DNA of 48,929 nt from Micromonosporaceae bacterium (GTDB taxonomy: Bacteria > Actinomycetota > Actinomycetes > Mycobacteriales > Micromonosporaceae): positions 1-48,929 of the forward strand of contig JAEHDK010000738.1 in NCBI GenBank assembly GCA_016880465.1, given 5' to 3'. Positions 473 through 34,654 of this stretch are shown here, one piece after another (within the stretch, counting starts at the first letter, position 1; every line of letters begins with the position of its first letter). Made by a program: the position numbers and the translations under genes. The notes beneath the pieces are model-generated. The model did no database searches, was not told where the DNA came from, and saw nothing but the letters and a program-made list of their open reading frames with translations.

Positions 473-2071
473 ATGCCATGGCGTGGTCCTGCCGAGGACG
501 GGGAGTTCCCAACGCTCGGCTACGACGTCGGAGAGTGGATCGAGGCCCATGTCGTCATCCCCGACGGATACCGGCAGGGTGAGCCATACCGCCTCACGGA
601 TGAGATGTGGAAGTTCCTGGTCCACTTCTACCGACTCTATCCGCACGCCGAGCCGTGGCCGGCGCCGGACGCGTTGCGGTACACGGGAGCGCAGTTGCGG
701 CGGTCGCAGAAGTGGGGCAAGGACCCGTTCGGTGCCGCGATCGACTTGGCGGAGGGGCTGGGGCCGACCCGGTTCGATGGGTGGAATGCCCGCGGCGAGC
801 CGGTGGGGGCCCCATACCCAACTCCGTTGATCGTCTGTCTGGGTACATCGGAGGATCAGACCGACAACACGTGGCGGCCGCTGCTCAACATGATCCGCCT
901 CGGCCCCTTGATCAACCTGTCGGGCATGGACGCGGGGGAGACCCGGATCAATCTGCCCTCGGGCGGCCGGATGGAGCCGGTCACCACGTCTGCCCGGGCT
1001 CGACTCGGGGCACCGATGACGTTCCTGACCCTCACGGAATCGCACCTGTTCACGTTGCAGGGCGGTTACCGGAAGGTCTGCGGCGCGGTGAAACGCAACG
1101 TCGCCGGTATGGACGGCCGGTGGTTGGAGTTGACCAACGCCTGGGACCCGACCGAGGGTTCCGAGGCGCAGGTGACTGCCGAATCCGGTGACGATCGGGT
1201 CTATGTGGACACCGTGGAGCCCAACCGGGTCGTCGACCTGACTGACGACGAGACGCTCTATGCCGAACTCTTGCGTCAGTACGGCGACTCTGCCCGTGAG
1301 CGGGGCGGTTGGGTCAACATCAAGGGCCGGATCTTTCATGAGGTCCGTTCGTCGCGGCATCTCGAGGCGGACCGGCGGCGATTTTTCCTCAACGAGATCG
1401 TCGTCGGCGAGTCGGTGCTGGTGGACCCGATCCGGTGGGATCTGGCGGGCCGCGAGGACGCCCTGGTGGCCGGAGAAGCGGTCGCACTGGGCTTTGATGG
1501 GTCGAAGTATCAGGACGCGACCGCGCTGGTGGCGTCGCGGATCGCCGACTCGCGTTTGTTCTGTCTTCGGGTGTGGGAGAAGCCGCAGGGCGCCGGCCGG
1601 GATTGGCGGGTGCCCGGACCCGAGGTGGATCGGGTGGTCCGGGACGTGTTCGCCGCCTATCGGGTCGCGGTTCTTTATGCCGATCCGTACCGCTGGCAGG
1701 ACTACTTGGACCAGTGGGCGGCCGCGTTTCCGAAGCGGGTCGTGGAGTTCAACACGAACGTCGAGCAGCGTATGGACCGGGCGATTGAAAGGTTTGTCAC
1801 CTCGTTCGGTGAGGGCGAACTGACCCACGACGGGTCACCTCACCTGACTCGGCACATCAAGAACGCCGTCCTGGTGAAGGGTTCCCGCAAGAAACCCCGG
1901 CCCGGTGAAGAGGACAGTGTCACTACGCACTACCTGAAGATGGCCAAGCGTGGCGAGGCCATGTTGATCGACCTGGCGGTTGCGGCGGTGCTCGCCCACC
2001 ATGCCCGCGGGCATGCCATTGAGGACGGATTCCAGACGACCGCACCGGAGCCTATGGTGGCATGGCGCTGA
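473..2071 (+). CDS. terL: Terminase large subunit
   Basis: 532 aa. N-terminal FPTLGYDVGEWIE...YRLTDEMWKFL and C-terminal ALGFDGSKYQDATALV nuclease-like segment resemble Terminase_1-type large subunits. Lies between terS and portal. Confidence 0.9.
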   Translation: MPWRGPAEDGEFPTLGYDVGEWIEAHVVIPDGYRQGEPYRLTDEMWKFLVHFYRLYPHAEPWPAPDALRYTGAQLRRSQKWGKDPFGAAIDLAEGLGPTRFDGWNARGEPVGAPYPTPLIVCLGTSEDQTDNTWRPLLNMIRLGPLINLSGMDAGETRINLPSGGRMEPVTTSARARLGAPMTFLTLTESHLFTLQGGYRKVCGAVKRNVAGMDGRWLELTNAWDPTEGSEAQVTAESGDDRVYVDTVEPNRVVDLTDDETLYAELLRQYGDSARERGGWVNIKGRIFHEVRSSRHLEADRRRFFLNEIVVGESVLVDPIRWDLAGREDALVAGEAVALGFDGSKYQDATALVASRIADSRLFCLRVWEKPQGAGRDWRVPGPEVDRVVRDVFAAYRVAVLYADPYRWQDYLDQWAAAFPKRVVEFNTNVEQRMDRAIERFVTSFGEGELTHDGSPHLTRHIKNAVLVKGSRKKPRPGEEDSVTTHYLKMAKRGEAMLIDLAVAAVLAHHARGHAIEDGFQTTAPEPMVAWR

Positions 2072-2081
2072 GGGGAGTCCG

Positions 2082-5000
2082 GTGACCCTCGAGCTGGTGC
2101 CGTTCCGCGGCCACACGGTGCCAGTCCTCAACGGCGTCAACGGCGAGATCGCCCGGTACAGCCTGCAGCAGTACCTGCAGGACACCACGTTCCGGTTCGG
2201 CGGGATCACCTACCAGCCCAACCAGTACGGGGTCACCACCACGTGGGGGCAGCGTCCGGCCGAGAAGGTCGGCAACAACTTCGCCGGCTACGCCGAGGGG
2301 CTGTTGTACCGGGATGGCCCACTGGCCGCGGCGGAGGCGTACCGGCTGCGGGTCTTCGGCCAGGCGCCGATGCTGTTCCAGGAACGCTCGGACGGCCGGG
2401 CCGGGGATCTGCTCGACGACGACTCCCTCGAGCCGCTGCGCACCCCATGGGTGGGCGGGTCTACCGGCGACCTGATGAAGCGGGCCCTGCTCTACGGGGA
2501 CCTGGGCGGCAACGGCTGGGTCGTGCACATCGACGACGAACTGGTGGTGCTGCGCCCCGACTACGTGACGATCGTGCTGGCCGACCGGATGTACGAGGGC
2601 CGCAAGGTCGGGTTCAAGCAGGTCGGGATCGCCTACTCCGAGTACGGGCTGCAGGACGACTCGGCGGCGGTGTTCATGCGCGGCGAGTACTGCCACTTCG
2701 TGCCGTTCATGCCCGACCCGCTGGCCTCCTACCGGGGCATGTCGTGGATGACGCCGATCATCCGGGACATCCAGTCCGACATCGGGGCCACCGACCACGG
2801 CCTGGCCTGGTGGTCCAATGCCGCGACACCGAACCTCGCGGTGAGCCTGCCGAAGGAGATCACTCCGGAGCAGTTCAAGAAGTTCGTCGCCGAGATGGAC
2901 GCCAACCACCGCGGCGCGATGAACGCCTACCGCACCCTGTACACGGCCGGTGGGGCCGACGTGACCGTGGTCGGCGCGAACATGCAGCAGATCGACTACT
3001 CCCGGGTGGTCGGGAAGAACGAGACCCGCATCGCCAACCTGTCGGGTATTCACCCGGCTTTGCTTGGTTTCTCCGAGGGCATGCAGGGGTCGTCGCTGAA
3101 CGCGGGCAACTACTCGGCGGCCAAGCGCAACGTGGTCGACACGACGATGCGGGACCTGTGGGCCAACTGGTGTGCGTCGATGCAGGTCCTGTTCCCGCCG
3201 CCGGACCCGACGTGGCGGCTCTGGTACGACGGGCGGGACATTCCGTTCCTGCTCGACGACGCGAAGGATCTCGCGGAGCGGCAGCAGACGCAGGCGGCGA
3301 CGATCGCGTCGCTGATTCAGGCCGGGTTCGAGGCCGCGTCCGCGGTGTCCGCGGTGTCCGCCGACGACCTGAAGCATCTCAAGCACACCGGCCTGGTGTC
3401 GGTGCAGTTGCTGCCCCCGGGTGAGCAGCCCGGCCAGACGGACCAGACGGACACCGCCGCGTACGAGCAGGCGTTGCAGACCGCCCGCGCGCAGGTGTGG
3501 GGCGACGACGACATCGAGCGCGGCTACTACGGGGCCCTGCCCGGTGAGCGGGTCGGGAAGGGCAAGGTCGGCGGCGGCCGGTTCAAGAAGCTGTCCGACC
3601 GGGCGTTGGACGCGATCCGGGAGTTCTTCGCCGCGGACGCTGACGGGGATCCGTTGGAGGGTTGGACGCAGCCGCAGCTGAAGACGGCGGCCACCCAGTT
3701 GGGCATCGACGTGCCGCCGCGCATGTCCGGGCCGAAGTTGAAGCTGGCCATCTTGGAGCACGCGCGTGGCAAGCCGGACGGCACCCCGAAGCCTGCCGGG
3801 AAGGCCACCCCACGCGCACCGGCGAAGAAGGCGGCGCCGAAGCCTGCGCGGCGCGTGGAGACGATGGCGACCGCACTGCATGAGGATTGGCGCCAGACGT
3901 TCCACAAGACCTTCCGTGCCGACCCGGACAACGCCGGCAAGAAACCGACTCGTCTGAAGACCACCAAGGACAAGGGTTGGATCGCATCACACGGCACTGA
4001 TCAGGTGGACATCGCCAACACTGACTACGCGGACCTGCCTGAGGACTGGCAGCGCGAGAACCGCGCCGCAGCTGAGGTCATCGAGGGAATCCTCGCTCGG
4101 CGCGGTCGGGTCGACCTGGACGACCCGGCGACCCGCGAGGCCCTGGGTGAGGAGATCCACGCCGCTTGGCTGTCGCGCAACGAGTGGGCCCGCGGCGGCG
4201 ACCTCGACAAGCCGTTTGCCGAGTTGCCGAAGGTCGAGCAGGACAAGGACATCGACCAGCTTCGGGTGGCGATGGGAGCGATGAAACCGGCTCCGGCCAA
4301 GAAGGCTCCGGCCGAGCCCGGTCTGCCGCCGGGTTACGACTTGCGGATCTCTCCAGCCCTGCATGCCCCCGGGCGGTACAACGTTAAGGCCTTCTACCCC
4401 ACTGGCCGCGAGGTCCACATCACCCAGAACTTGACGCAGGCCGGGGCGCGACGCGAGTTGGATCGGTTGACCGCCGGTGGGCCGGAGTTGGTCGACGCTA
4501 CGCATGCGAAGAACTCCCACGCGGTTAGGGAGCGCAACCAAAGGTTGATGGAGGCGGAGGCACTCAAGGAACAAAGGAAGGTCAGGCGACAGCAGCTTCA
4601 GGGGCGCTCGCCCTCTTGGTTGCGCGAGCAGCTGGCCGATCGAGGCCTTGATACGTCCGGCACCACGGCGCAAATGATCAACCGCCTGATGGACGCTGAG
4701 GGTCTTGGACAGGCGGACACCAAGACGCCGTCTCGACCCGACCTCGAGGCCGCCGGGAAGGCCACCCCACGCGCACCGGCGAAGAAGGCGGCGCCGAAGG
4801 CTGCGCGCGAGTCGGTGCTCGGCGGCCCGATGGACGAGAACGAGGAGTTGCTGCACGGGCTCACTCTGGCCGAGATCGTCCAGGTGGCAGAGGAACTGAA
4901 CGTCCAGGCGCCCGTCGCCAACACGGGCCGTGGTTTTGGCATGGGCCGTAGGTGGCCATCGAGTAAGGCGGGCCGCATCAGGTATGTCCTTCAGTCGCTC

Positions 5001-7175
5001 GACCTGGCGGCGGGTCGGGATTCGGCCCACCGGGGGCGGTGGGAGATACCGAGGGCCGTTGAGGGCGTGGTGGCGCGGCGAGGCGATGTGCCGATGCCCG
5101 ACCCCGAGGCCGCCGCCCGCGACCGCCAGGCCGACATCGACTCCGCCCGCCGCTTCTCCGCCACCGCCGGCGAGTTGGACGAGATCCTCCACAACGACGC
5201 ATCCACCGAGGCGCTGCTGTCCCGGCTGGATAACGCGGGCGTGCGTCACGGGATCACCGACGAGTTGGCCCCGGTGCGGGCGGCGGTGGAGCAAGCCCGG
5301 CAGGTTGAGGTAGAGAACCGCATCCGCGCGGCCTTCCGTTCGCTGCTCGGGCGCCCCGGCCTGGAGGAGGGCCCGACCGAGTTCTCGATGGCGCCCGGCA
5401 TGACGCCGCAGCGCCTGATGCGCGAGGGCGGTTACGTCTCCATCGCTGACCTGCGCGACGAGTTGTCCGACATACCGCGAGCCGAGCAGGACGCGGCTCT
5501 CAAGCGGATCGCGATTCACGACCCGGGCGCGAACGCGGTGCCCGAATCGGCGCAGGGCAGTCTGACCGACCGGCAGCGCGCTGGAGCGCTGCACTATGGC
5601 GACCAGGACAAGCACTGGCTGATCATCGACGACCCGTCCGACCGCCCCGTCCCTTCGCCGCGCGCCGAGATGGACCGTCTCCTCGCCGCCCATGGCATCA
5701 CCCGCGATGGCGAGGCCGGCGACACCGGCGCCTTCACCCGCAGCCTGCACGAGCCGATCTCCGGTGACCTGCGCGAGGGGCAGCCGGTGCAGGTGATCCG
5801 GCCGGGGTTCAGCCTGGACCGGGACGGGGAGCGGATCCGGCTGTCGAAGGCGGTTGTGGAGGAGGCGGACGCGCCGGCTCCCATCGACGCGGACGACGAG
5901 TCCATTGACAGGCACCTGGATCGCCTCGCCGACCTCTTGAACGGGTTCGACCCGAAGGACCGCCAAACGTCTGCCGAGTTGACCGAGATCGCCAATGGGA
6001 TGCGGGATGGGTCCATCTCCGACCAGGCAGCGGCGGGTCGGCTGGCAGCATTGGCCGCCGACTACGAGGGCTCGAACACGGGGACGAACCTCGCGATGTG
6101 GTCGCGGGAACTCAGCGGTGGCACGGCGCCCTCCACCCCCGACCCCGAGGCCCTCCGCGACTCCCTGGACCTGAAGACCGTCGACCAGCTCAAGGACATG
6201 ATCCGCGAGCGTAACAAGGCCGGCGCCAACCTGCGGCTGTCCGGGCGGAAGCGGGAGCTCGTCGACCGGCTGGTGGAACACGAGACGGGCGGCGGTGGAC
6301 CGGCACCCGAGCCGCCGAAGAAGCGTGCGCCGAGGAAGGCTACGGCGCCCGCAGGGCGACCCCCGGCCACGCCCGTGCCGATCCACGACCTGCTCGACGC
6401 CGACGACGCTACGATCGACGCCGCCCTAAGGGACGTGTATGAAGGCCAGTTCGGCCCGTACACGACGAAGGTCACCAGAGTCGGCATCCGGCGGGCCGGC
6501 ATCCGAACCGACGGCAGGGGACGTGTGCACCCGGTCGACCCGGAGATCTTTGTCGAAGGTTCGATCTACGGCCCGGAAGGTGTCGCTGGCGGTAGCATCG
6601 GTAACTTCGGCCGGTCGATCGGACCGGCAACCATGCACTACGCCGACGGCACCGTCCGTCGCGAGGTATGGGCCCAGCACTCCATCGTCCAACTCGACGA
6701 GGAGTTCCAGGGCAAGGGCTTCGGCGGTCACTTCAACCGTCGCGTGATCGAGTGGTATCGCGCGTCGGGGGTCCACGGCATCAGCCAGGACGATCACAAC
6801 TTCTACGTGTGGGCGTCGCAGGGCTTCGACTTCCGTGGCGGCATCGTGACGCGGCAGGCCACCGAAGCGATGCGTGACCTCATCGCGTCCCTGCGGGCCG
6901 GCAAGACCAAGTTCAACTTCGGCGACACGATCCCCAAGCGGCTACGCGACGCGCCCGACCTCGAGGCACAGATCGCTGCCGCCGAGGCGCTACTGGCGCG
7001 GCTGGAATTAACGAGTCCAGGGCAACCCGACTACCCGACGGCCTACGAGATCTCACAACTTGGCCGGCGCCGTGGCCAGCGCGGGCGAACCGCCGTCTGG
7101 CTGGGCAAGCTGATCCCGGTCTCGGCAGACGAGATGATCCTCAACCCGGATGAGGGTGAGGTGATCAGCGGATGA
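2082..7175 (+). CDS. Portal protein fused to a ~1,200-aa polyvalent C-terminal extension (SAP/HeH motifs, RyR-like repeats, GNAT-like domain)
   Basis: GTG 2082 follows RBS AGGGGAG, 11 nt after the terL stop. One uninterrupted 1,697-codon frame. The first ~470 aa look like an HK97/SPP1-type portal; the rest is described in findings. The track start at 1980 overlaps terL and is rejected. Confidence 0.8.
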   Translation: MTLELVPFRGHTVPVLNGVNGEIARYSLQQYLQDTTFRFGGITYQPNQYGVTTTWGQRPAEKVGNNFAGYAEGLLYRDGPLAAAEAYRLRVFGQAPMLFQERSDGRAGDLLDDDSLEPLRTPWVGGSTGDLMKRALLYGDLGGNGWVVHIDDELVVLRPDYVTIVLADRMYEGRKVGFKQVGIAYSEYGLQDDSAAVFMRGEYCHFVPFMPDPLASYRGMSWMTPIIRDIQSDIGATDHGLAWWSNAATPNLAVSLPKEITPEQFKKFVAEMDANHRGAMNAYRTLYTAGGADVTVVGANMQQIDYSRVVGKNETRIANLSGIHPALLGFSEGMQGSSLNAGNYSAAKRNVVDTTMRDLWANWCASMQVLFPPPDPTWRLWYDGRDIPFLLDDAKDLAERQQTQAATIASLIQAGFEAASAVSAVSADDLKHLKHTGLVSVQLLPPGEQPGQTDQTDTAAYEQALQTARAQVWGDDDIERGYYGALPGERVGKGKVGGGRFKKLSDRALDAIREFFAADADGDPLEGWTQPQLKTAATQLGIDVPPRMSGPKLKLAILEHARGKPDGTPKPAGKATPRAPAKKAAPKPARRVETMATALHEDWRQTFHKTFRADPDNAGKKPTRLKTTKDKGWIASHGTDQVDIANTDYADLPEDWQRENRAAAEVIEGILARRGRVDLDDPATREALGEEIHAAWLSRNEWARGGDLDKPFAELPKVEQDKDIDQLRVAMGAMKPAPAKKAPAEPGLPPGYDLRISPALHAPGRYNVKAFYPTGREVHITQNLTQAGARRELDRLTAGGPELVDATHAKNSHAVRERNQRLMEAEALKEQRKVRRQQLQGRSPSWLREQLADRGLDTSGTTAQMINRLMDAEGLGQADTKTPSRPDLEAAGKATPRAPAKKAAPKAARESVLGGPMDENEELLHGLTLAEIVQVAEELNVQAPVANTGRGFGMGRRWPSSKAGRIRYVLQSLDLAAGRDSAHRGRWEIPRAVEGVVARRGDVPMPDPEAAARDRQADIDSARRFSATAGELDEILHNDASTEALLSRLDNAGVRHGITDELAPVRAAVEQARQVEVENRIRAAFRSLLGRPGLEEGPTEFSMAPGMTPQRLMREGGYVSIADLRDELSDIPRAEQDAALKRIAIHDPGANAVPESAQGSLTDRQRAGALHYGDQDKHWLIIDDPSDRPVPSPRAEMDRLLAAHGITRDGEAGDTGAFTRSLHEPISGDLREGQPVQVIRPGFSLDRDGERIRLSKAVVEEADAPAPIDADDESIDRHLDRLADLLNGFDPKDRQTSAELTEIANGMRDGSISDQAAAGRLAALAADYEGSNTGTNLAMWSRELSGGTAPSTPDPEALRDSLDLKTVDQLKDMIRERNKAGANLRLSGRKRELVDRLVEHETGGGGPAPEPPKKRAPRKATAPAGRPPATPVPIHDLLDADDATIDAALRDVYEGQFGPYTTKVTRVGIRRAGIRTDGRGRVHPVDPEIFVEGSIYGPEGVAGGSIGNFGRSIGPATMHYADGTVRREVWAQHSIVQLDEEFQGKGFGGHFNRRVIEWYRASGVHGISQDDHNFYVWASQGFDFRGGIVTRQATEAMRDLIASLRAGKTKFNFGDTIPKRLRDAPDLEAQIAAAEALLARLELTSPGQPDYPTAYEISQLGRRRGQRGRTAVWLGKLIPVSADEMILNPDEGEVISG
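3795..3850 (+). repeat. Direct repeat copy 1 (56 bp, 1 mismatch) inside the portal-fusion ORF
   Basis: GCCGGGAAGGCCACCCCACGCGCACCGGCGAAGAAGGCGGCGCCGAAG(C/G)CTGCGCG. Encodes AGKATPRAPAKKAAPK. The second copy is at 4752-4807, exactly 957 bp (319 codons) downstream. Confidence 0.9.
4752..4807 (+). repeat. Direct repeat copy 2 (56 bp, 1 mismatch) inside the portal-fusion ORF
   Basis: Same 56-bp string as 3795-3850, in the same reading frame. Confidence 0.9.
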
Positions 7176-7699
7176 TCGCGCGCGTTGTCCCCGATCCGAT
7201 CGTGGTGCGCCGTCGGAACGAGTTGCTCGATCTGTACCACGACTGGGCTGGCGACGGTGACCCGGACGACGATCCCGAGTTCGTGGACGCGGCGCGGGAG
7301 ATCATGGGCCTGCCGCCGCTGAGCGACGTAGTCCGTGCGGCCGTCAGCGACGATGGCGACTTCTACGATGAGGACCCCGGCGAGCCCGACGACGAGCAGC
7401 GCGCCCGGGCGCAGGCCCGCATGGACGAGATCGACCCGGACGGACCCGACGACGTAGCTCGAGCCGCCGGCGCCGACGTGACGCCGGGGCATGACGAGCT
7501 GCATCACTACTGGACGCGGGATCCGCGCGGGCTCGCCAAGTGGGCAAAGTCCCCGCACCCATGGACTGCCCTGTATCACCACTTGGTGAAGTTCGTCGGT
7601 CCCGAGCGAGCCAAGCGCATGGCCTCCCAGTGGCACAAGGAGGTCTTCGGAATCTGGGTGGGGGAGAAGAAGGGCAAGAACCCGCTCGGCCCTGGATGA
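7172..7699 (+). CDS. Head-module protein of unknown function (acidic N-terminal half; HHYWTRDPRGLAKWA..PHPWTALYHHL..AKRMASQWHKEVFG motif)
   Basis: ATGA overlap with the portal-fusion stop and high third-position GC. I recognise the C-terminal motif from actinophage head modules, but no function is known. Confidence 0.7.
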   Translation: MIARVVPDPIVVRRRNELLDLYHDWAGDGDPDDDPEFVDAAREIMGLPPLSDVVRAAVSDDGDFYDEDPGEPDDEQRARAQARMDEIDPDGPDDVARAAGADVTPGHDELHHYWTRDPRGLAKWAKSPHPWTALYHHLVKFVGPERAKRMASQWHKEVFGIWVGEKKGKNPLGPG

Positions 7700-7751: not shown

Positions 7752-8558
7752 TTGGAGTCGAACGTGCACCAGACTATGGTGTGCGCGGTTTGCCAAGTAC
7801 TTTTCGAGCCACGCAACCCGCGACAGGTCACCTGCTGCAACCGCTGCTACATGTGGCACCGGCGGCACCCGAACCAGCCAGACGTGCCTCGGTTCTGCGA
7901 GACTTGCGGCGATCGGCTCCCGGTCGGCTGTAATCGCGCCAGGCGGTACTGCCGGATGGCGTGCAATGCGGCGGCATCGAAGCGCCGCTGTCGTCCGAAC
8001 GTAGGTGAGTACAGGTACTACTCAGACTGCCAGCACTGTGGCGCCGCACTGTCTGGCCGTCGTGCCGGGAAGCGCTTCTGCAATGGACGGTGCGAGCAAC
8101 GGGAGCGGGTCTTCCCTGGCAGTGCTTGGTACTACGCCAATCGCAGGTGCGAGTACTGCGGCGAGCCGATTCCGGTCGAAGCCCGTTATAACAAGCGCCA
8201 TTGCTCAAACGAATGCACGGCGAAGGCCAACATGGACCTTCGCCGGGCTCGCATGGAGGCGCTTCCGTCGGAGCGGATCAACCGATGGAAGGTCTTTGAG
8301 CGCGACGGTTGGATCTGCCATCTGTGCAAGCTGCCGGTCGACAAGACGCTCAGTGGCCTGGACCCCGGGATGGCGAGCCTGGATCACATCATCCCGTTCA
8401 ACGAGCCCGACAGCCCTGGGCACGTCTGGACCAACGTCGCTCTGGCTCATTTACGCTGCAATTTCTCGAAGAACGCTCGGACCCGTCAAGAGGACTGGTC
8501 GCTGCACATCGCCCTCGCAGTCACGGGCAAAGCCCCGCCTCCTGGGCGCCTCTTCTGA
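7752..8558 (+). CDS. HNH endonuclease with four N-terminal CxxC..(F/Y/H)C(S/N/R)xxC zinc-ribbon repeats
   Basis: C-terminal WICHLCKLPV...LDHIIPF...NVALAHLRCNFSKN is a classic HNH motif. The N-terminus holds four repeated zinc-ribbon modules. Start is uncertain (TTG 7752, GTG 7764, ATG 7776). Confidence 0.85.
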   Translation: MESNVHQTMVCAVCQVLFEPRNPRQVTCCNRCYMWHRRHPNQPDVPRFCETCGDRLPVGCNRARRYCRMACNAAASKRRCRPNVGEYRYYSDCQHCGAALSGRRAGKRFCNGRCEQRERVFPGSAWYYANRRCEYCGEPIPVEARYNKRHCSNECTAKANMDLRRARMEALPSERINRWKVFERDGWICHLCKLPVDKTLSGLDPGMASLDHIIPFNEPDSPGHVWTNVALAHLRCNFSKNARTRQEDWSLHIALAVTGKAPPPGRLF

Positions 8559-8620: not shown

Positions 8621-8644
8621 GGCATGCCCGGAAGGGAGCGAGGC

Positions 8645-9703
8645 GTGGACGACATCGAACGTCGCATGATGTCCACCGAGGAGATCAACGACCTTCCCGA
8701 CGACGCCTTCGCCTACATCGAGCCCGGCGGGACGAAGGACGCCCAGGGCAAGACCGTCCCCAGGTCGCTGCGGCACTTCCCCATCCACGACCGCGCGCAC
8801 GTCGAGAACGCGATGGCCCGCATGTCCCAGTCCCCACACGGCGAGCACGCCAAGAAGAAGATCATGGCGGCGGCCAAGAAGTACGGCATGGGCATGTCCG
8901 ATGACGCCGAACGTGCCGTGACCCGTTGCTGCCCGGCCGAGCACACCTTCGACCGCGAATGGCCGCTGGACGACATCGTCATCCGCGCCGGCGGCGACGG
9001 CCGCACCGTCGAGGCGTACGCCGCGGTCTTCGGCGTCCCGACGGAGGTCAAGGACCAGCACGGCCACTACATGGAGACCATCGACCGGGCCGCGTTCAAC
9101 GAGGTACTCGCCGAAGGCATCGACAAGGTTGGATGCTATTATCACCACGGGATGACCTTGCACGGCACCCCGTCCGACCTCGGATCGGTGCCCATCGGCT
9201 CCCCCGTCGACATCCGCGCCGATAGCAAGGGCCTTCGCACCATCACCCGGTTCAACAAGTCCGCCCTGGCCGACGCGACCCTCGAGGCCATCCGCGCCGG
9301 GGACCTGCGCGGCTACTCCTTCCGCGGCCCGATCCGCAAGTCCAACCCGCCACGCATCGCCCGCGCCCGCGACGGCCAACCCCTGCCTACTGTCACCCGC
9401 ATGGCGCTCGGGCTCAACGAGTACGGCCCCACCCCCACCCCGTACTACGCCGACGCGAGGATCCTGGCGGTCCGCTCGGCGCAGGCCATCGCCACCAACC
9501 CGGTCGCGCTCGCCGAACTTCAGGCCGAACTCGCCCGCATGCTTGCCCGCTCCACTCCGTTGGACCAGGAGCGGGACCCCGCCACTCCCACCGAGGGACC
9601 AGGCGCCGAGGACCAGCCCACCGAGGCACTCCGGTCGGCATCCATGCACGACATCCGCCGGCGCATCGCCGTATTCAAGATCCTCGGAGGAAGAAAGTCA
9701 TGA
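8645..9703 (+). CDS. HK97-family prohead (capsid maturation) protease
   Basis: The DIVIRAGGDGRTVEAYAAVFG...ETIDRAAF...LRGYSFRG region matches the U35/HK97 prohead protease pattern. N-terminal LRHFPIHDRAHVENAMARM module. GTG 8645 follows RBS GGAAGGGAG; in-frame alternatives are ATG 8624 and 8666. Confidence 0.85.
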   Translation: MDDIERRMMSTEEINDLPDDAFAYIEPGGTKDAQGKTVPRSLRHFPIHDRAHVENAMARMSQSPHGEHAKKKIMAAAKKYGMGMSDDAERAVTRCCPAEHTFDREWPLDDIVIRAGGDGRTVEAYAAVFGVPTEVKDQHGHYMETIDRAAFNEVLAEGIDKVGCYYHHGMTLHGTPSDLGSVPIGSPVDIRADSKGLRTITRFNKSALADATLEAIRAGDLRGYSFRGPIRKSNPPRIARARDGQPLPTVTRMALGLNEYGPTPTPYYADARILAVRSAQAIATNPVALAELQAELARMLARSTPLDQERDPATPTEGPGAEDQPTEALRSASMHDIRRRIAVFKILGGRKS

Positions 9704-11178
9704 GCCTCAAGCGCCTCGACGAGGTCGACGCCGAACTGGCGCTCGTCGAGCAGCAGATCGAAGAGATCAACAACCTGGCCGAGCCGGAGGGCGGAGACGC
9801 CGTCCGCGCCCAGATCCTGTCCGAACGCGACGCCCGCCTCGACGACCTGATCACCCGCCACAAGGAACTCCAGACCGAGCGGGAGCCGCTGCTGGTCCGC
9901 GCCAAGGAGCTGGACGCCATCCGCTCCGCGGCCCGCGACCGTGCCCGCACGGAGCCCGGCGACGGCGCGACCCCCGTCCGCTTCGACGGCCGCGGCCCGC
10001 AGGTCATGAACCGCGTCCAGCCGTACGAGGGCCTCGAACTGGTCCGCGCCGGCGTGGTTGCCCGCGAGGACATGATCGGCCGGGCGAAGGCCGCGGTCGA
10101 CACCGCCCCCAGGCACCTGTCCGACGACTCGCGGCAGAAGGTCACCCTCCTGCTGGAGGACGAGGGCAAGCAGGCCCCGCTCATCGCCCGGCACATGCTC
10201 CTCACCGGTTCGGAGGAGTACCACAAGCAGTTCCGCGAGTACATCGAGAGCAGGGGCGCCTACGCCGGTGACGTCATGCGTACCGCCCTGTCGCTGACCG
10301 ACGCCAATGGCGGCTACCTGGTGCCGTTCACCCTTGACCCGACCATCATCCTGACCAACGCGGGCATCCAGGGCACCATCCGGTCGATCTCCACCACGAA
10401 GACGATCGTCACCGACGCCTGGCACGGCGTCACCTCCGCCGGTGTCACGGCCGAGTGGCTCGCGGAAGCCACCCAGGCCGCGGACGCGACCCCGACCTTC
10501 GGCCAGCCCACCATCACCCCGCGCAAGGCCGCGGCGTGGGTGTTCGGCAGCTACGAAGTCCTGGCCGACTCCGGCTTCGCCAGCGAACTGCAGATGCTTC
10601 TGGCCGACGCCAAGCTGCGCCTGGAGGAAGCCGCATTCGCCACTGCGAACACGGCCGCGTCCAAGCCGGTCGGCATCGTGTCCGCCGTCGCCGCCATCAC
10701 CGCATCCATCGTCTCCTCGGCGACCATCACGTCGTTCGTCGTTGGCGACGTGTACCGGGTCGCCGACGCCCTGCGCGCCCGCGACGCCAGCCAGGCGTCG
10801 TGGATCGCGAACAAGACGATCTTCTCGAAGATCCGCCAGTTCGACACCTCCGGCGGCTCGGCGTTCTGGGCCAACCTCGGCATGGGCGTCCCGTCCCTGC
10901 TGCTCGGCCAGCCGCAGTACGAGTGCTCCACCATGGGCTCGGTGATCACCACGTCGGCCAACATCCTGCTCGCCGGCAACTTCAAGCAGTACTACGTGGT
11001 GGACCGGGTCGGCATGTCGGTGATGTACGAGCCGATGGTCAAGTCCACCAACGCCAACCGCCCTACTGGCGAGGCCGGCTGGTTCGCTTTTTGGAGGGTT
11101 GGGGCCGATACGGTCGATCCGGATGCCTTCCGACTCCTACAGCTACACACAACTCCTGGCTTCACCGCGCTCGCCTAA
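9700..11178 (+). CDS. Major capsid protein, HK97 fold, with coiled-coil delta domain
   Basis: ATGA overlap with the protease. The N-terminal ~100 aa are coiled-coil (scaffold-like). TDANGGYLVPFTLDPTIIL and the C-terminal MYEPMV.. pattern are typical of HK97-type capsids. Confidence 0.9.
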   Translation: MSLKRLDEVDAELALVEQQIEEINNLAEPEGGDAVRAQILSERDARLDDLITRHKELQTEREPLLVRAKELDAIRSAARDRARTEPGDGATPVRFDGRGPQVMNRVQPYEGLELVRAGVVAREDMIGRAKAAVDTAPRHLSDDSRQKVTLLLEDEGKQAPLIARHMLLTGSEEYHKQFREYIESRGAYAGDVMRTALSLTDANGGYLVPFTLDPTIILTNAGIQGTIRSISTTKTIVTDAWHGVTSAGVTAEWLAEATQAADATPTFGQPTITPRKAAAWVFGSYEVLADSGFASELQMLLADAKLRLEEAAFATANTAASKPVGIVSAVAAITASIVSSATITSFVVGDVYRVADALRARDASQASWIANKTIFSKIRQFDTSGGSAFWANLGMGVPSLLLGQPQYECSTMGSVITTSANILLAGNFKQYYVVDRVGMSVMYEPMVKSTNANRPTGEAGWFAFWRVGADTVDPDAFRLLQLHTTPGFTALA

Positions 11179-12410: not shown

Positions 12411-12763
12411 GCAAGGACACCGGCAGGGTGCGGTGGGCGAAGAACAACGACAGCGTTGCCGTCGAACTCCGGGCATTCTGTGTCGGCTGTGGTCTACCCA
12501 GGGGGATCGCTCCTGCTGGCCGCCATGGCCCGACTGTCGAAGGCTGGATGGACGACCAAGTCGACCGACGCCTTCAGAAGGAAATGTCCCCGATCGCCGA
12601 GCGTCGCCGGATGCACGAGCGAGTGACCGCCGAGTTCCGCCTGACCCTAAACGGCTGGAATGAGCCCTGTGGGTGTGGTGGACGTGGGGTCGTCTTTTCT
12701 TGGGGAAGCCACTTCTGCCCGGTGACCCATCGGCACTACAAGTGCCCGCATTTGGATACCTGA
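12407..12763 (+). CDS. Hypothetical Cys/His-rich protein
   Basis: ATGA overlap with the previous gene and high third-position GC. No recognisable domain. Confidence 0.55.
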   Translation: MSKDTGRVRWAKNNDSVAVELRAFCVGCGLPRGIAPAGRHGPTVEGWMDDQVDRRLQKEMSPIAERRRMHERVTAEFRLTLNGWNEPCGCGGRGVVFSWGSHFCPVTHRHYKCPHLDT

Positions 12764-12800
12764 CCCCCCGCCGCCTGCCAGGCGGTCGGGCGGCGGGGTC
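12762..12800 (+). terminator. GC-rich hairpin preceding the glycosylation island
   Basis: GACCCC(CC)GCCGCC ... GGCGGCGGGGTC, 12 bp with a 2-nt bulge. Begins at the stop codon of 12407-12763. Confidence 0.4.
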
Positions 12801-12828
12801 AACCGCCTACCGACCGCCTGGAGGATCA

Positions 12829-13578
12829 ATGGCCAACGAAGACGGTGTTGTCGTCGCCTGGGTGCGCCCGGCGCAGCTGCACGGCAACTTCATGGAGTGT
12901 CTGCTCAACCTGGTCTACTACGACCGCGAGCACTACGACCGGCTGGCCCCGGGTCGGGGTGGGCTGATCTCGCAGACGTCGAGCGCGAACATCTCGGGTG
13001 CCCGGAACACGGTGTGCCTGGAGTTCCTGACCTCGCATGCCGCCCCGTGGCTGCTGCTGTTGGACACGGACATGACGTTCCGCCCGGATCTGGTCGAGGC
13101 GCTGTTGGAGTACGCCGATCCGGTGAAGGCGCCGATCGTGGGCGGGCTGTGCTTCTCGATGGACAACGACGGGAAGCTGTTCCCCACGTTGTACGACCTG
13201 ATCGGCGAGGCGGACAGTCCGGAGTTTGTCCGGTACCACGAGTGGAAGCCGGACGCGATGATGCAGGTGTTCGCGACGGGTGCGGCGTGCATGTTGATCC
13301 ACCGGGATGCGCTGCGGGCGGTGCGGGACTACCGGCTGCCGGACCATCCGGGTCGGGTGGGGTTTTCGCAGGCGTTTCCGTGGTTTCAGGAGACGGACTT
13401 CTTCGGCCGGGTGATGGGTGAGGACATCACGTTCTGTATGCGGGCCGGCCATGCGGGGGTTCCGATTCACGTGAACACGGCGGTGCAGCTCGGGCACATC
13501 AAGCAGTTCGAGCTGAACTTGGAGCATTTCGCGGGCCAGCGGGCGCTGGAAGAGGCGAAGGCGGCCGCCGGTGAATAG
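12829..13578 (+). CDS. Glycosyltransferase, GT-A fold (family 2-like)
   Basis: ATG 12829 follows RBS GGAGGA. LLLLDTDMTF (DxD), GGLCFS, ATGAACMLIHRDAL and MGEDITFCMRAGHAG resemble GT2 enzymes. Confidence 0.8.
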   Translation: MANEDGVVVAWVRPAQLHGNFMECLLNLVYYDREHYDRLAPGRGGLISQTSSANISGARNTVCLEFLTSHAAPWLLLLDTDMTFRPDLVEALLEYADPVKAPIVGGLCFSMDNDGKLFPTLYDLIGEADSPEFVRYHEWKPDAMMQVFATGAACMLIHRDALRAVRDYRLPDHPGRVGFSQAFPWFQETDFFGRVMGEDITFCMRAGHAGVPIHVNTAVQLGHIKQFELNLEHFAGQRALEEAKAAAGE

Positions 13579-13753
13579 CCTGGTCGACTATCTCGCCGCG
13601 AAGTTGGCCGCCACTGAGGCTGGGTGCACGTGCCGGGATCAGCGCAAAACGATTGAGGCGCAGTTGCCGCCGGGCACCCTAGTGCTGATCGACTGCGTCG
13701 AGCACGGGCTGGTCCGTACGCGGGTTGCCGGCTTCGATTGGGTGACCACATGA
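13571..13753 (+). CDS. Small hypothetical protein
   Basis: 60 aa. Overlaps both neighbours (8 nt upstream, ATGA downstream). Confidence 0.45.
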   Translation: MNSLVDYLAAKLAATEAGCTCRDQRKTIEAQLPPGTLVLIDCVEHGLVRTRVAGFDWVTT

Positions 13754-14406
13754 GCGACATCGCTGTGGTGGTGCCGGTGCTCAACCGTCCGAATCACGCC
13801 GCGCCGATCATGGAGTCCCTGCGCGCGTCGACGGAGAACGCGGCGGTGTACGCGGTCGTGTCCGAACGGGACACCCGAACCGAGTCGGCGTGGATCGTGG
13901 CCGGTGCAAATGTGCTCACGTCGCCGCTGATGACGTTCCCGGAGAAGGTCAACTATGCGTACTCGGTGACCGGCGAGCCGTGGCTGTTCCTGACTGGTGA
14001 CGATGTGAAGTTCCACGCCGGCTGGGCCGAGGAGCTGCTCCGTGTGGCGGCCGGGACGGGCGCGCTGGTGGTCGGGTCCAACGACCTGGCCAACCCGCGG
14101 TCGGAGGACGGGTCGCACTCGCCGCACATGCTGATCTCACGCCAGTACATCGCCGATCAGGGGGCGTCGTGGGACGGCCGTGGGGTGGTGTGCCATGAGG
14201 GATACCGTCACATGTTCGTCGACGACGAGATCGTGACGGTGGCCAAGCAGCGCGGGGTGTTCGCCTTCGCCAAGGATGCGGTGGTGGAGCATCTGCACCC
14301 GGTGGCCGGGAAGGCTGAGGTGGACGCCACGTACCGGCTGGGCTGGTCGTACGCGGATGTCGACAAGTCGCGTTTCGCCGAGCGGATGCGGGAGAACGCA
14401 CTGTGA
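13750..14406 (+). CDS. Glycosyltransferase, GT-A-like
   Basis: IAVVVPVLNRPNHAAPIMESL... and LFLTGDDVKFHAGW (DD motif). ATGA start overlap. Confidence 0.7.
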   Translation: MSDIAVVVPVLNRPNHAAPIMESLRASTENAAVYAVVSERDTRTESAWIVAGANVLTSPLMTFPEKVNYAYSVTGEPWLFLTGDDVKFHAGWAEELLRVAAGTGALVVGSNDLANPRSEDGSHSPHMLISRQYIADQGASWDGRGVVCHEGYRHMFVDDEIVTVAKQRGVFAFAKDAVVEHLHPVAGKAEVDATYRLGWSYADVDKSRFAERMRENAL

Positions 14407-33743: not shown

Positions 33744-33772
33744 GCCCGAGCCGGTCACAACCCGGCTCGGGC
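33744..33772. terminator. 11-bp perfect hairpin at the integrase 3' end
   Basis: GCCCGAGCCGG-TCACAAC-CCGGCTCGGGC. The int stop codon (TCA on the plus strand) sits in the loop. Confidence 0.5.
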
Positions 33773-34654
33773 CCCCGTGTCTGGCACCGGCAGCGCGAGC
33801 ACGGCAGCGCGGCGTTGATGGCCGGTCACCTGCGTGTATCCCTGGGTGCTGGTGACGTTCTTGTGCCGCAGGCACTCCTGGGTGACCCGCAGGTCCCCCA
33901 CGGTGGCCTGGATCAGCGTCCCGTACCGATGCCGGAGCCGGTGCAGGTGCACTGTATGCAACCCCAGCCGGTCGAGGTGGTACCTGGCCGTCTGGGTGAT
34001 CCAGTGCCCGTCGACCGGTTGTCCCCTGCGGTTGGTCACGAGCGGGCCGGGTGACCGGTTCACCACCAGCGCCCAGACGATCGGGTGGGTCGGTACGACA
34101 CCCGGTTGGTCACCCTTGCCCGAGGGGATCAGGATCGTCTCAGCCGTGATGTGCTCGCGCATGCAGGCCGCGATCTCCGATACCCGCATGCCCGCGTACC
34201 CGGCGAGGGTGGCCGCGGTGCGCAGCGGTTCCGGTAGGGCGTCGAGCATGGCCGCCAGCTCCTCCTCGGTGACCGGTTTCGGTAGGCACCTCGGGGCCTT
34301 CGGCTGGGGGATGGAGGCGGTGGGGTCTCCGTCGAGAAACCCGGCGGAGGTGGCCCACTGGTAGAAGGCCCGGATGTGGTAGGCGTACACGGACAGTGTC
34401 CAGCGGGACCGACCCAAGGTGCGGAGGTCGGACAGCCACGCCTCGATCTGCTCGGTGGCGGCGAACGCGAGGCCGAAGGGCAGCCATCCGTTGAGCCGGC
34501 CGAGCACGTTGACGCGTGCCTCGATGGTGCGTCTGCTCTTGCCTCCCGCCCGTAGGTGCCGGGCGTGGAGGTCCAACAACTGATCACTCATCCGCAGATC
34601 TTCGTGACGTCGGGTCACTACGGGCAACCCCTCTCCAGTCTGTGATGGCTCCAC
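33755..34654 (-). CDS. int: Tyrosine integrase (XerC/D-like, 299 aa)
   Basis: GMRVSEIAA (Arg I), HLHRLRHRYGT (HxxR) and LRHKNVTSTQGYTQV (His..Tyr). The start overlaps the repressor stop by 1 nt. Alternative start is ATG 34591. Confidence 0.9.
   Translation of the reverse strand: MEPSQTGEGLPVVTRRHEDLRMSDQLLDLHARHLRAGGKSRRTIEARVNVLGRLNGWLPFGLAFAATEQIEAWLSDLRTLGRSRWTLSVYAYHIRAFYQWATSAGFLDGDPTASIPQPKAPRCLPKPVTEEELAAMLDALPEPLRTAATLAGYAGMRVSEIAACMREHITAETILIPSGKGDQPGVVPTHPIVWALVVNRSPGPLVTNRRGQPVDGHWITQTARYHLDRLGLHTVHLHRLRHRYGTLIQATVGDLRVTQECLRHKNVTSTQGYTQVTGHQRRAAVLALPVPDTGARAGL

Follow-up and report, generated by a model that had tools for sequence, protein, structure and literature searches.

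The window analysed here is a 48,929-nucleotide (nt) stretch of DNA: positions 1 to 48,929, forward strand, of contig JAEHDK010000738.1 from a Micromonosporaceae bacterium (assembly GCA_016880465.1). It contains a phage head module with the gene order terminase small subunit (TerS), terminase large subunit (TerL), a portal fusion, an open reading frame (ORF) of 175 amino acids (aa), an HNH gene, an S78 prohead protease and an HK97 capsid protein. The phage is of a high-GC, actinobacterial type, and the presence of a tyrosine integrase gene (33758-34654, - strand) indicates that it is temperate. The subject of this report is the portal fusion, a single gene in which a portal domain continues into an extension of ~1,220 residues composed of several unrelated modules. 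The fusion gene and its modules, TerL, the 175-aa ORF, the protease gene and the capsid gene are all on the + strand.

A portal gene with a long extension

The frame of the fusion is open from 1980 to 7175. A GTG start codon at 2082 and a TGA stop codon at 7173-7175 give a single product of 1,697 aa, and aa numbers used below count from this GTG. As read directly from the sequence and the list of ORFs, the start region (2070-2084) consists of a ribosome-binding site (RBS), GAGGGGAG, at 2070-2077 and the start codon at 2082-2084, which lies four bases past the RBS and 11 nt past the TerL stop codon (TGA, 2069-2071). Across all 100-codon blocks of the gene, the in-frame GC content is 0.77-0.96 at third codon positions (GC3) and 0.40-0.58 at second positions (GC2). 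This codon-position composition is that of one continuous gene. GC3 is ~0.95 over the first 500 codons and 0.77-0.92 beyond, and the drop after codon ~500 fits a portal core joined to acquired modules. A first-pass annotation had described a single ORF from GTG 2082 to 7175, with an RBS and with coding-like third-position GC throughout, and both descriptions stand.

The first ~480 aa (2082-3521) form a portal domain of the HK97/SPP1 type. The Pfam Phage_portal profile (PF04860) matches aa 94-416 with an E value of 8e-25 and 88.1 bits (gathering cut-off 39.1), and the match spans profile positions 16-310 of 321, which is almost the entire profile. The PHROG matches of the N-terminus are likewise portal families. 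Isolated phages were compared by using megablast and tblastn against 50,697 phage records. By tblastn, only aa ~35-470 match, at 40-44% identity, and the matched proteins are portals of Gordonia, Rhodococcus and Mycobacterium phages. The earlier impression that only the first ~470 aa resemble a portal is correct. The same records yield no DNA-level match, and no tblastn match to the extension (aa 480-1697). The matched actinophage portals are ~473 aa long and are followed directly by a maturation protease or by a protease-capsid fusion. In the window, the fusion adjoins TerL, and no second portal is present among the ORFs scanned.

The fusion in related phages

When the extension was searched against 5.8 billion proteins, 28 relatives of 1,128-2,024 aa were obtained, ten of which carry Phage_portal (lengths 1,147-2,023 aa) and two Portal_Mu. 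In these proteins (P numbers below; L numbers denote loci), portals are combined with SAP, ADP-ribosyltransferase (ART), 2H/LigT, NUDIX, PG-binding and intein-type LAGLIDADG domains. A blastp module map shows that the modules of the window fusion are shuffled among the 28 relatives. Several of them are collinear with the window protein through the portal end: P0010 (65% identity over aa 1-601), P0024 (60% over aa 1-599), P0012 (60%), and P0003, P0005, P0009 and P0013 (~40% over ~22-600). In all, the junction is collinear in at least eight independent metagenomic proteins with 40-65% identity. Loci L003 and L004 have the order TerL, long portal, S78 protease and HK97 capsid, and P0003 is found in two samples.

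IMG/VR was scanned with an alignment of the portal domain, and the 80 closest loci were examined. Most portals (69 of 80) end no more than 146 residues past the portal match, the majority within about 85. The other 11 extend by at least 220 residues, six of them by at least 630 (up to 1,810), and the four closest relatives (55-67% identity) are all extended.

An ordinary portal of ~475 aa might have been joined to downstream genes by a missed stop codon, an indel or a chimeric assembly. The short portals that directly precede the protease in the nearest isolated phages would agree with such an artefact, as would the difference in GC3 between the portal part and the extension. However, the frame-specific coding signal is unbroken, the junction is collinear in the independent metagenomic proteins described above, and long portals recur among both the ten Phage_portal relatives and the 11 extended IMG/VR relatives. 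Because the junction, the gene order and the extension recur in relatives, a missed stop or a chimeric assembly can be excluded for practical purposes. We consider the artefact explanation effectively refuted, with only a trace of probability left to it, and these comparisons indicate that the portal-cargo fusion is genuine.

The first-pass annotation had also called for a comparison of split and fused versions. Fused forms are those of the relatives above, and a split form is present in L005. There, the portal carries just a 2H domain (856 aa), and the counterpart of the C-terminal GNAT module of the window protein is encoded separately, by a gene for 459 aa. Other large ORFs come next and then the S78 protease, such that cargo modules are separate genes between portal and protease.

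A different type of interruption is observed in P0004, P0014 and IMG/VR locus L041, in which an insertion of ~320 aa near aa 310-320 splits the portal domain. The insertion-split proteins bear Pfam LAGLIDADG_3, and the insertion is probably an intein.

Portal and MuF as alternative anchors

Pfam searches with E values up to 1 (whole fusion) or up to 10 (segments) detect no Phage_Mu_F domain (PF04233) in the fusion. A hidden Markov model (HMM) made from the MuF domains of cargo-sharing relatives likewise finds nothing in the six frames of the window at E values up to 10. The earlier claim that the window lacks a separate MuF/SPP1-gp7-like or scaffold gene is thereby confirmed for MuF.

Among 146 listed relatives of the GNAT module outside the first homologue set, phmmer identifies 12 proteins with an HK97 portal, three with a Mu portal and 10 that are MuF-like. 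Six of these were checked by using Pfam, and the anchors were confirmed as Phage_portal in P0047, Phage_Mu_F in P0059, P0070 and P0147, and Portal_Mu in P0069 and P0168. The three MuF proteins carry Phage_Mu_F together with Rho_N/HeH, ART or kinase-like domains and a terminal GNAT module. These architectures show that the same cargo can be anchored at its N-terminal side by an HK97 portal, a Mu portal or MuF interchangeably. The proposal that cargo is covalently attached to the portal is borne out most strongly by the occurrence of the GNAT module on three anchors and by the lack of MuF in the window. The data support the view that the extension is cargo of the polyvalent type, with the portal in place of the MuF anchor.

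Modules of the extension

The portal domain is followed by a conserved junction (aa ~481-590; 3522-3851) that aligns collinearly with P0010, P0024 and P0003 and has no Pfam match. The junction contains an acidic linker, the motif G-K-G-K-V-G-G-G-R-F-K-K-L-S, whose form across relatives is G-x-G-x-V-G-G-G-R-F-(K/R)-K-L-S, and a first HeH-like motif, GWTQPQLKTAATQLGIDVPPRMSGPKLKLAILEH, with the pattern GWTQPQLK..A.QLGI.VPPR.S.PKLK.AIL.H. Written more generally as (H)P(R/K)-x-G-x-(V)GGGRF(R/K), the glycine-rich motif is at aa ~520-545 of the window protein (nt ~3640-3715). Motifs of the GGGRF type are also present in P0002, P0003, P0005, P0008, P0009, P0012, P0027, P0030, P0033 and P0039, where they lie shortly past portal domains and, in stand-alone cargo proteins, close to the N-terminus.

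A direct-repeat search (family D1) detects two copies of a Lys/Ala/Pro linker, at aa 570-590 (3790-3850) and aa 889-909 (4747-4807), both of which read AGKATPRAPAKKAAPK. The linkers had been noted in the first pass, and their two copies prove to be a 61-nt direct repeat that is 95% identical and has a spacing of 957 nt, which is exactly 319 codons. The two copies form a sharply bounded island of identity between unrelated flanks and bracket a RyR-like/SAP cassette. The same island is found in the P0003 gene of the 40%-identical relative L004 (9912-9943). The repeat might serve as a joint at which recombination shuffles modules or deletes sequence in frame. These linkers, which are of the PAKKA type, resemble actinobacterial histone-like tails.

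A tandem pair of RyR-like repeats occupies aa ~595-735 (3864-4286). This module is common to large proteins without an N-terminal portal, at 51-67% identity. When its profile is compared with PDB, the top match is an RyR1 chimera (6uhi, E 0.035) with both halves aligned, and a bacterial RyR (6uag) scores E 0.82. Pfam RyR (PF02026) matches three of nine homologous modules (best E 0.0075), and the window copy itself has no Pfam match. The assignment of the two RyR-like repeats predicted earlier is marginal.

A small module at aa ~748-846 leads into SAP domain 2 (aa 847-872; nt 4620-4697), and the two together span 4323-4697. Residues 748-876 are common to P0020, at 57% identity. HeH-like motif 3 (aa 919-938; 4836-4895) has no Pfam match and appears in the AlphaFold model described below as two short helices (model residues 40-59) in a block whose predicted local distance difference test (pLDDT) score is 91-92. 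SAP domain 4 (aa ~1363-1401; 6168-6284), matched by Pfam SAP at aa 1383-1401 and followed by a Pro/Lys linker, is kept in P0002, P0003 and others. For the whole protein, Pfam SAP (PF02037) scores 38.7 bits (cut-off 23.9) over two stretches, each of which alone scores 22.3-22.5 bits. Four SAP/HeH-like motifs had been proposed. Pfam recognizes those at aa 847-872 and 1383-1401, the AlphaFold model indicates the one at aa 919-938, and the one at aa ~556-590 comes from inspection and conservation in relatives.

Residues 880-1350 were modelled with AlphaFold from an 18-row alignment, and the mean pLDDT is 80.4. Within this block, the alignment and the model delimit a helical module A (aa ~1003-1075; 5088-5306), which is the first half of a split A+C domain and has long helices with pLDDT above 90. 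Module B (aa ~1076-1195; 5307-5666) is located between A and C. In the model, it has three helices and then a beta hairpin, and it looks winged-helix-like. Because A and C adjoin in most relatives, module B is an insertion. Some relatives have it in three to four tandem copies, and multiple copies occur in P0007 and P0028. Module C (aa ~1196-1275; 5667-5906) consists of one helix and a small beta domain. It is followed by a four-helix segment (aa ~1273-1344; 5898-6113; model helices 394-465, pLDDT 61-75).

Foldseek finds no significant match to aa 880-1350 in PDB or BFVD (best E 0.42, for MukE, in PDB and best E 0.22 in BFVD), although matches to single domains may have been missed with this multi-domain query. 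MukE is also the best PDB match of module B, again below significance. A homologue search with the same residues returned just two weak matches, and low-complexity words probably filled the candidate list. The first-pass annotation had counted ~500 aa without recognizable features. This holds at the level of sequence, and the model indicates that the region folds confidently into a structure that matches nothing solved.

A GrpE-like identity was considered for the A+C domain. The Pfam GrpE profile is matched by one of 18 members (E 0.034), and a PDB profile search does not return GrpE. Foldseek ranked GrpEL1 second, but with E 0.88. This candidate was rejected.

The C-terminal GNAT-fold domain

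The protein ends with aa 1427-1697 (6360-7175, including the stop codon). Alignment of 16 sequences of this module reveals an invariant Q-G-K-G-F-G loop and a Y-x-W-A-S-Q-G-F motif. GNAT motif A (Q/R-x-x-G-x-G/A), which forms the loop that binds the pyrophosphate of acyl-CoA, is present as FQGKGFGG. Residues G118, G120 and F121 are invariant in the 16 sequences, as is the Y-x-W-A-x-x-G-F that follows. The AlphaFold model of the module has a pLDDT of 87.8, and most of the 50 matches listed by Foldseek in PDB are GNATs, with E values from 4.7e-4 and probabilities up to 1.00. The top match is nourseothricin acetyltransferase (5c82, E 4.7e-4), and HAT1, OrfE, TacT/AtaT, Naa50 and GCN5 follow. On the basis of this modelled fold, aa 1427-1697 appear to be a GNAT-fold acyltransferase-like domain with an extra helical tail. 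The GNAT-like C-terminus suspected in the first pass is thus upheld by fold and motif, with Pfam remaining below its threshold (E 0.17).

An exhaustive HMMER search with the GNAT module recovered 322 cluster representatives with E values up to 1e-3, of which 143 have E values up to 1e-10. The module is nearly always at the extreme C-terminus, in proteins of ~200 to over 5,000 aa. A genome scan with the GNAT alignment found two contigs of metagenome-assembled genomes only, one from Micromonosporaceae and one from Opitutaceae (the latter probably mis-binned), and a single-protein scan of IMG/VR found one locus.

The downstream ORF and a protease-tail peptide

The 175-aa ORF (7172-7699) overlaps the stop codon of the fusion by the sequence ATGA. 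In P0030, P0034, P0035 and P0036, the GNAT domain is fused to the counterpart of its first ~50 aa. At least nine portal-fused relatives end with its last ~70 aa, which have the pattern HYWT..G.GL..W..PHPWT...GPG. The 175-aa ORF is a continuation of the cargo chain. The same ATGA split is present in the 60%-identical relative L007 (ORF 2482-3045). Because the split is kept in L007, the boundary is taken to be genuine, and the overlap is probably translationally coupled. Neither Pfam nor PDB yields a match to the HYWT...GPG end domain. Isolated Gordonia phages encode it within large genes of the head module, whose annotations are maturation protease, RNA ligase or virion structural protein.

Two other identities were considered and rejected. 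The 175-aa ORF was rejected as an immunity protein, given that relatives have each of its halves joined to cargo chains, including chains that lack GNAT. The HYWT...GPG domain was considered as the C-terminal tail of the protease, but blastp against four protease sequences gave no match.

In the window, L004 and L005, the S78 protease terminates in the motif S-x-x-D-I-R-R-R-I/A-x-x-x-x-I-L/T-G/R-G. Four stand-alone cargo proteins (P0030, P0034, P0035 and P0036) and three head-module ORFs in L005 carry this motif at their N-termini. Its positions are 9650-9700 in the window, ~14114 in L004, and 1338, 8016, 11952 and 16192 in L005. The window fusion lacks this DIRRR motif. Duda, Oh and Hendrix reportedly found in 2013 (J Mol Biol 425:2765) that the C-terminal tail of the HK97 protease directs encapsidation. 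By analogy, the protease-tail-like peptide, which is a short motif, is a candidate capsid-targeting signal for stand-alone cargo. Cargo that is fused to a portal would not need a targeting peptide.

Neighbouring genes

TerL (473-2071) is assigned by PHROG TerL families. It is directly upstream of the fusion and is itself preceded by the terminase small subunit. The prohead serine protease of the S78 family (8624-9703; Pfam PF04586, PHROG 80) has the C-terminal tail SMHDIRRRIAVFKILGG, which carries the motif described above. The protease had been called adjacent to the fusion gene, but the 175-aa ORF and the HNH gene separate the two. The HNH endonuclease gene (7752-8558), located between the cargo genes and the protease, is absent from this position in L003 and L004.

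The protease has an N-terminal extension of ~120 aa with a PHROG 16160 match at aa 50-86. In the relative L004, PG_binding domains are fused to the S78 protease. Because of this extension and the L004 fusion, the protease is a fusion chassis too in this phage group.

The HK97-fold major capsid protein (9700-11178) matches Pfam Phage_capsid at aa 204-481 of 492. Because it carries an N-terminal extension of ~200 aa, which is scaffold- or delta-like, a separate scaffold gene is not expected. Two glycosyltransferase-like genes (12673-13578 and 13738-14406) are located shortly downstream of the capsid gene and may function in virion glycosylation. Similar genes are found in the head modules of some mycobacteriophages (PMC4351075).

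Proposed function of the extension

We consider it fairly probable that the only portal of this phage, with its chain of ~1,220 residues of modules, brings its fused cargo into the particle, and that the cargo is cleaved off and acts in the host after ejection. The chain would resemble beads on a string, in the order junction motif and HeH, Lys/Ala/Pro linker, RyR-like pair, SAP, second Lys/Ala/Pro linker, HeH with the helical/winged-helix-like/beta block, SAP, and GNAT-fold acyltransferase.

The C-terminus of a portal, on the crown side, faces the capsid interior. Because of this orientation, every portal subunit would carry its cargo into the prohead without MuF or a targeting peptide. Up to 12 copies of cargo could be present per virion. 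At ~110 Da per residue, they would amount to roughly 12 x 130 kDa, which would fill little of the capsid volume. The chain would be held on the packaged DNA by the SAP/HeH modules and by the linkers that are like histone tails. After ejection, the enzyme module, like the ART, 2H or NUDIX modules of relatives, would act in the host. Such action would require that cargo be cleaved from the portal. The most plausible enzyme for this step is the S78 prohead protease (8624-9703), acting during maturation, which is the only protease in the head module. The fusion itself is shown to be real, recurrent and mosaic, whereas the location of the cargo inside the capsid, its copy number, its binding to DNA, its release by the protease, its delivery into the host and the target of the enzyme are inferred, here as in the first-pass annotation.

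Several points weigh against this proposal. Cargo tethered to a portal that is retained in the capsid cannot leave uncut, and neither a peptidase domain nor a recognizable cleavage motif was found in the extension. Twelve tails of ~130 kDa round the crown might hinder DNA entry. Functional assignments are also incomplete: ~470 residues have none, and those of the HeH and RyR-like elements are partly marginal. For the GNAT domain, Foldseek TM-scores are low (0.24-0.29 by query, 0.36-0.46 by target), and the curated profile Acetyltransf_CG is below threshold (E 0.17, 12.5 bits, cut-off 30).

The failure to detect a protease site or a peptidase domain is what would be expected if the extension is never released. 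It would then be a tethered accessory for organizing DNA or for packaging and retention, like an extended DNA-binding portal barrel. In that case, the targets of the enzyme module would be phage DNA or proteins inside the head, unless the module is vestigial. Two Pfam SAP domains, two HeH-like motifs and the PAKKA linkers are in keeping with such a role, as is the existence of long portal C-terminal barrels that extend into the capsid, for example in phi24B. However, relatives bear host-directed effectors (ADP-ribosyltransferase, 2H phosphoesterase, NUDIX) on the same chassis, and the same GNAT module is present on MuF-anchored proteins, a class treated in the literature as ejected. In addition, module content is highly variable among close portals, which fits arms-race cargo better than a structural role. 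We therefore regard permanent tethering as unlikely, and release of the cargo into the host remains the explanation that we favor.

The number of cargo copies would be well under 12 if a short portal were also made, by frameshifting, internal termination or cleavage before assembly, and if both forms entered a mixed ring. Steric considerations, in our judgment, favor fewer than 12 bulky tails. Furthermore, a heptamer, C-CCG-GGT at 3416 (3416-3424, aa 445), is followed by an immediate stop in the -1 frame. However, the heptamer is not kept in relatives, which have CCC CCT GGC (L003), CCG CCC GGT (L004) and CCG CCG GGA (L005) at this site, and it is one of three expected from composition. Programmed -1 frameshifting at CCCGGGT 3416 was rejected on this basis, and the heptamer probably arose by chance. 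An internal RBS or start was not seen either, although no search aimed at one was made. A mixed ring is judged to be quite improbable.

The observations on anchors, targeting and linkers can be drawn together in a broader model that we advance tentatively and hold to be rather doubtful as a whole. Under this model, related phages would use three interchangeable routes for cargo: fusion to a portal (HK97 or Mu), fusion to MuF, and an N-terminal peptide like the protease tail. With fusion to a portal, the dose would be fixed at 12 copies, the protease would release the cargo, and the conserved linker repeat would also be the recombination joint by which modules are shuffled.

Implications

The principle of a portal fused to cargo will not surprise a specialist, but this case is unusually clean and makes the idea of portal-delivered cargo directly testable. 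Portal-fused effector chains are so far purely a computational prediction. A temperate phage with one portal of 1,697 aa, no MuF and a nearby S78 protease is a clean test system. It raises the questions of whether a ring can assemble with 12 bulky tails, whether cargo is cleaved and whether it enters the host. If the proposed mechanism is true, foreign proteins could be loaded into phage heads at the portal C-terminus, as a natural site with a fixed copy number. The GNAT family, the A/B/C block and the HYWT...GPG domain are candidate modules with which actinobacterial phages might counter host defences or take over the host. To our knowledge, none of the portal-fusion examples cited below has been tested experimentally.

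Comparison with known systems

Polyvalent proteins were defined by Iyer, Burroughs, Anand, de Souza and Aravind in 2017 (PMC5512222), who described fusions to "MuF or portal domains" of PBECR, 2H and InPase and also noted GNAT and Rho-N/SAP HEH modules. One example is the InPase-portal fusion BcepF1.124. Iyer et al. 2022 (PMC9503650) added fusions of Nudix, ART and 2H to MuF, Portal and capsid protease, and packaging and injection of portal-fused effectors have been proposed computationally (PMC5512222, PMC9503650). The novelty implied for a portal-cargo fusion in the first pass was thus overstated. The window protein has the features of a polyvalent protein, namely several unrelated domains, including an effector-type fold, a late-gene location and a mosaic architecture. 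Like the portal fusions of Iyer et al., it has an N-terminal portal followed by effector domains, is encoded beside terminase in the late/head module and is mosaic. It differs from them in the far greater length of its chain (~1,220 aa past the portal), which contains at least eight modules. The word "RyR" is absent from the 2017 paper (PMC5512222), whereas the window protein has a marginally RyR-like pair. The A/B/C block and the GNAT family with a helical tail have no Pfam model and are not named in the Iyer survey. No paper was found to contain the exact words "portal and MuF-like fusion".

MuF polyvalent proteins and polymorphic toxins (SPP1 gp7 / Mu gp30, PF04233; Jamet et al. 2017, PMC5576092) follow the same cargo logic and partly carry the same cargo. 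In the window, however, the anchor is the portal itself rather than an adaptor that binds the portal, and stoichiometry would follow the portal ring. In contrast with the MuF polymorphic toxins, no toxin-specific immunity gene is located immediately downstream of the window fusion.

T4 Alt and other internal proteins carry N-terminal capsid-targeting sequences. These proteins and the HK97 protease serve the same aim as that proposed here, which is to place non-structural proteins in the prohead before packaging. The window cargo differs in that it has no targeting peptide and is covalently attached to the portal instead.

A C-terminal barrel is a known feature of portals such as P22 gp1. Portal barrels are coiled helices of ~90-120 aa with a structural role, whereas the window extension is ten times longer, is multi-domain and includes an enzyme fold. 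The barrel of phi24B gp72 also projects into the capsid interior (bioRxiv 10.64898/2026.04.10.717836). The window locus is thus a large addition to the computationally known portal-effector fusions, and it brings uncharacterised modules to this group.

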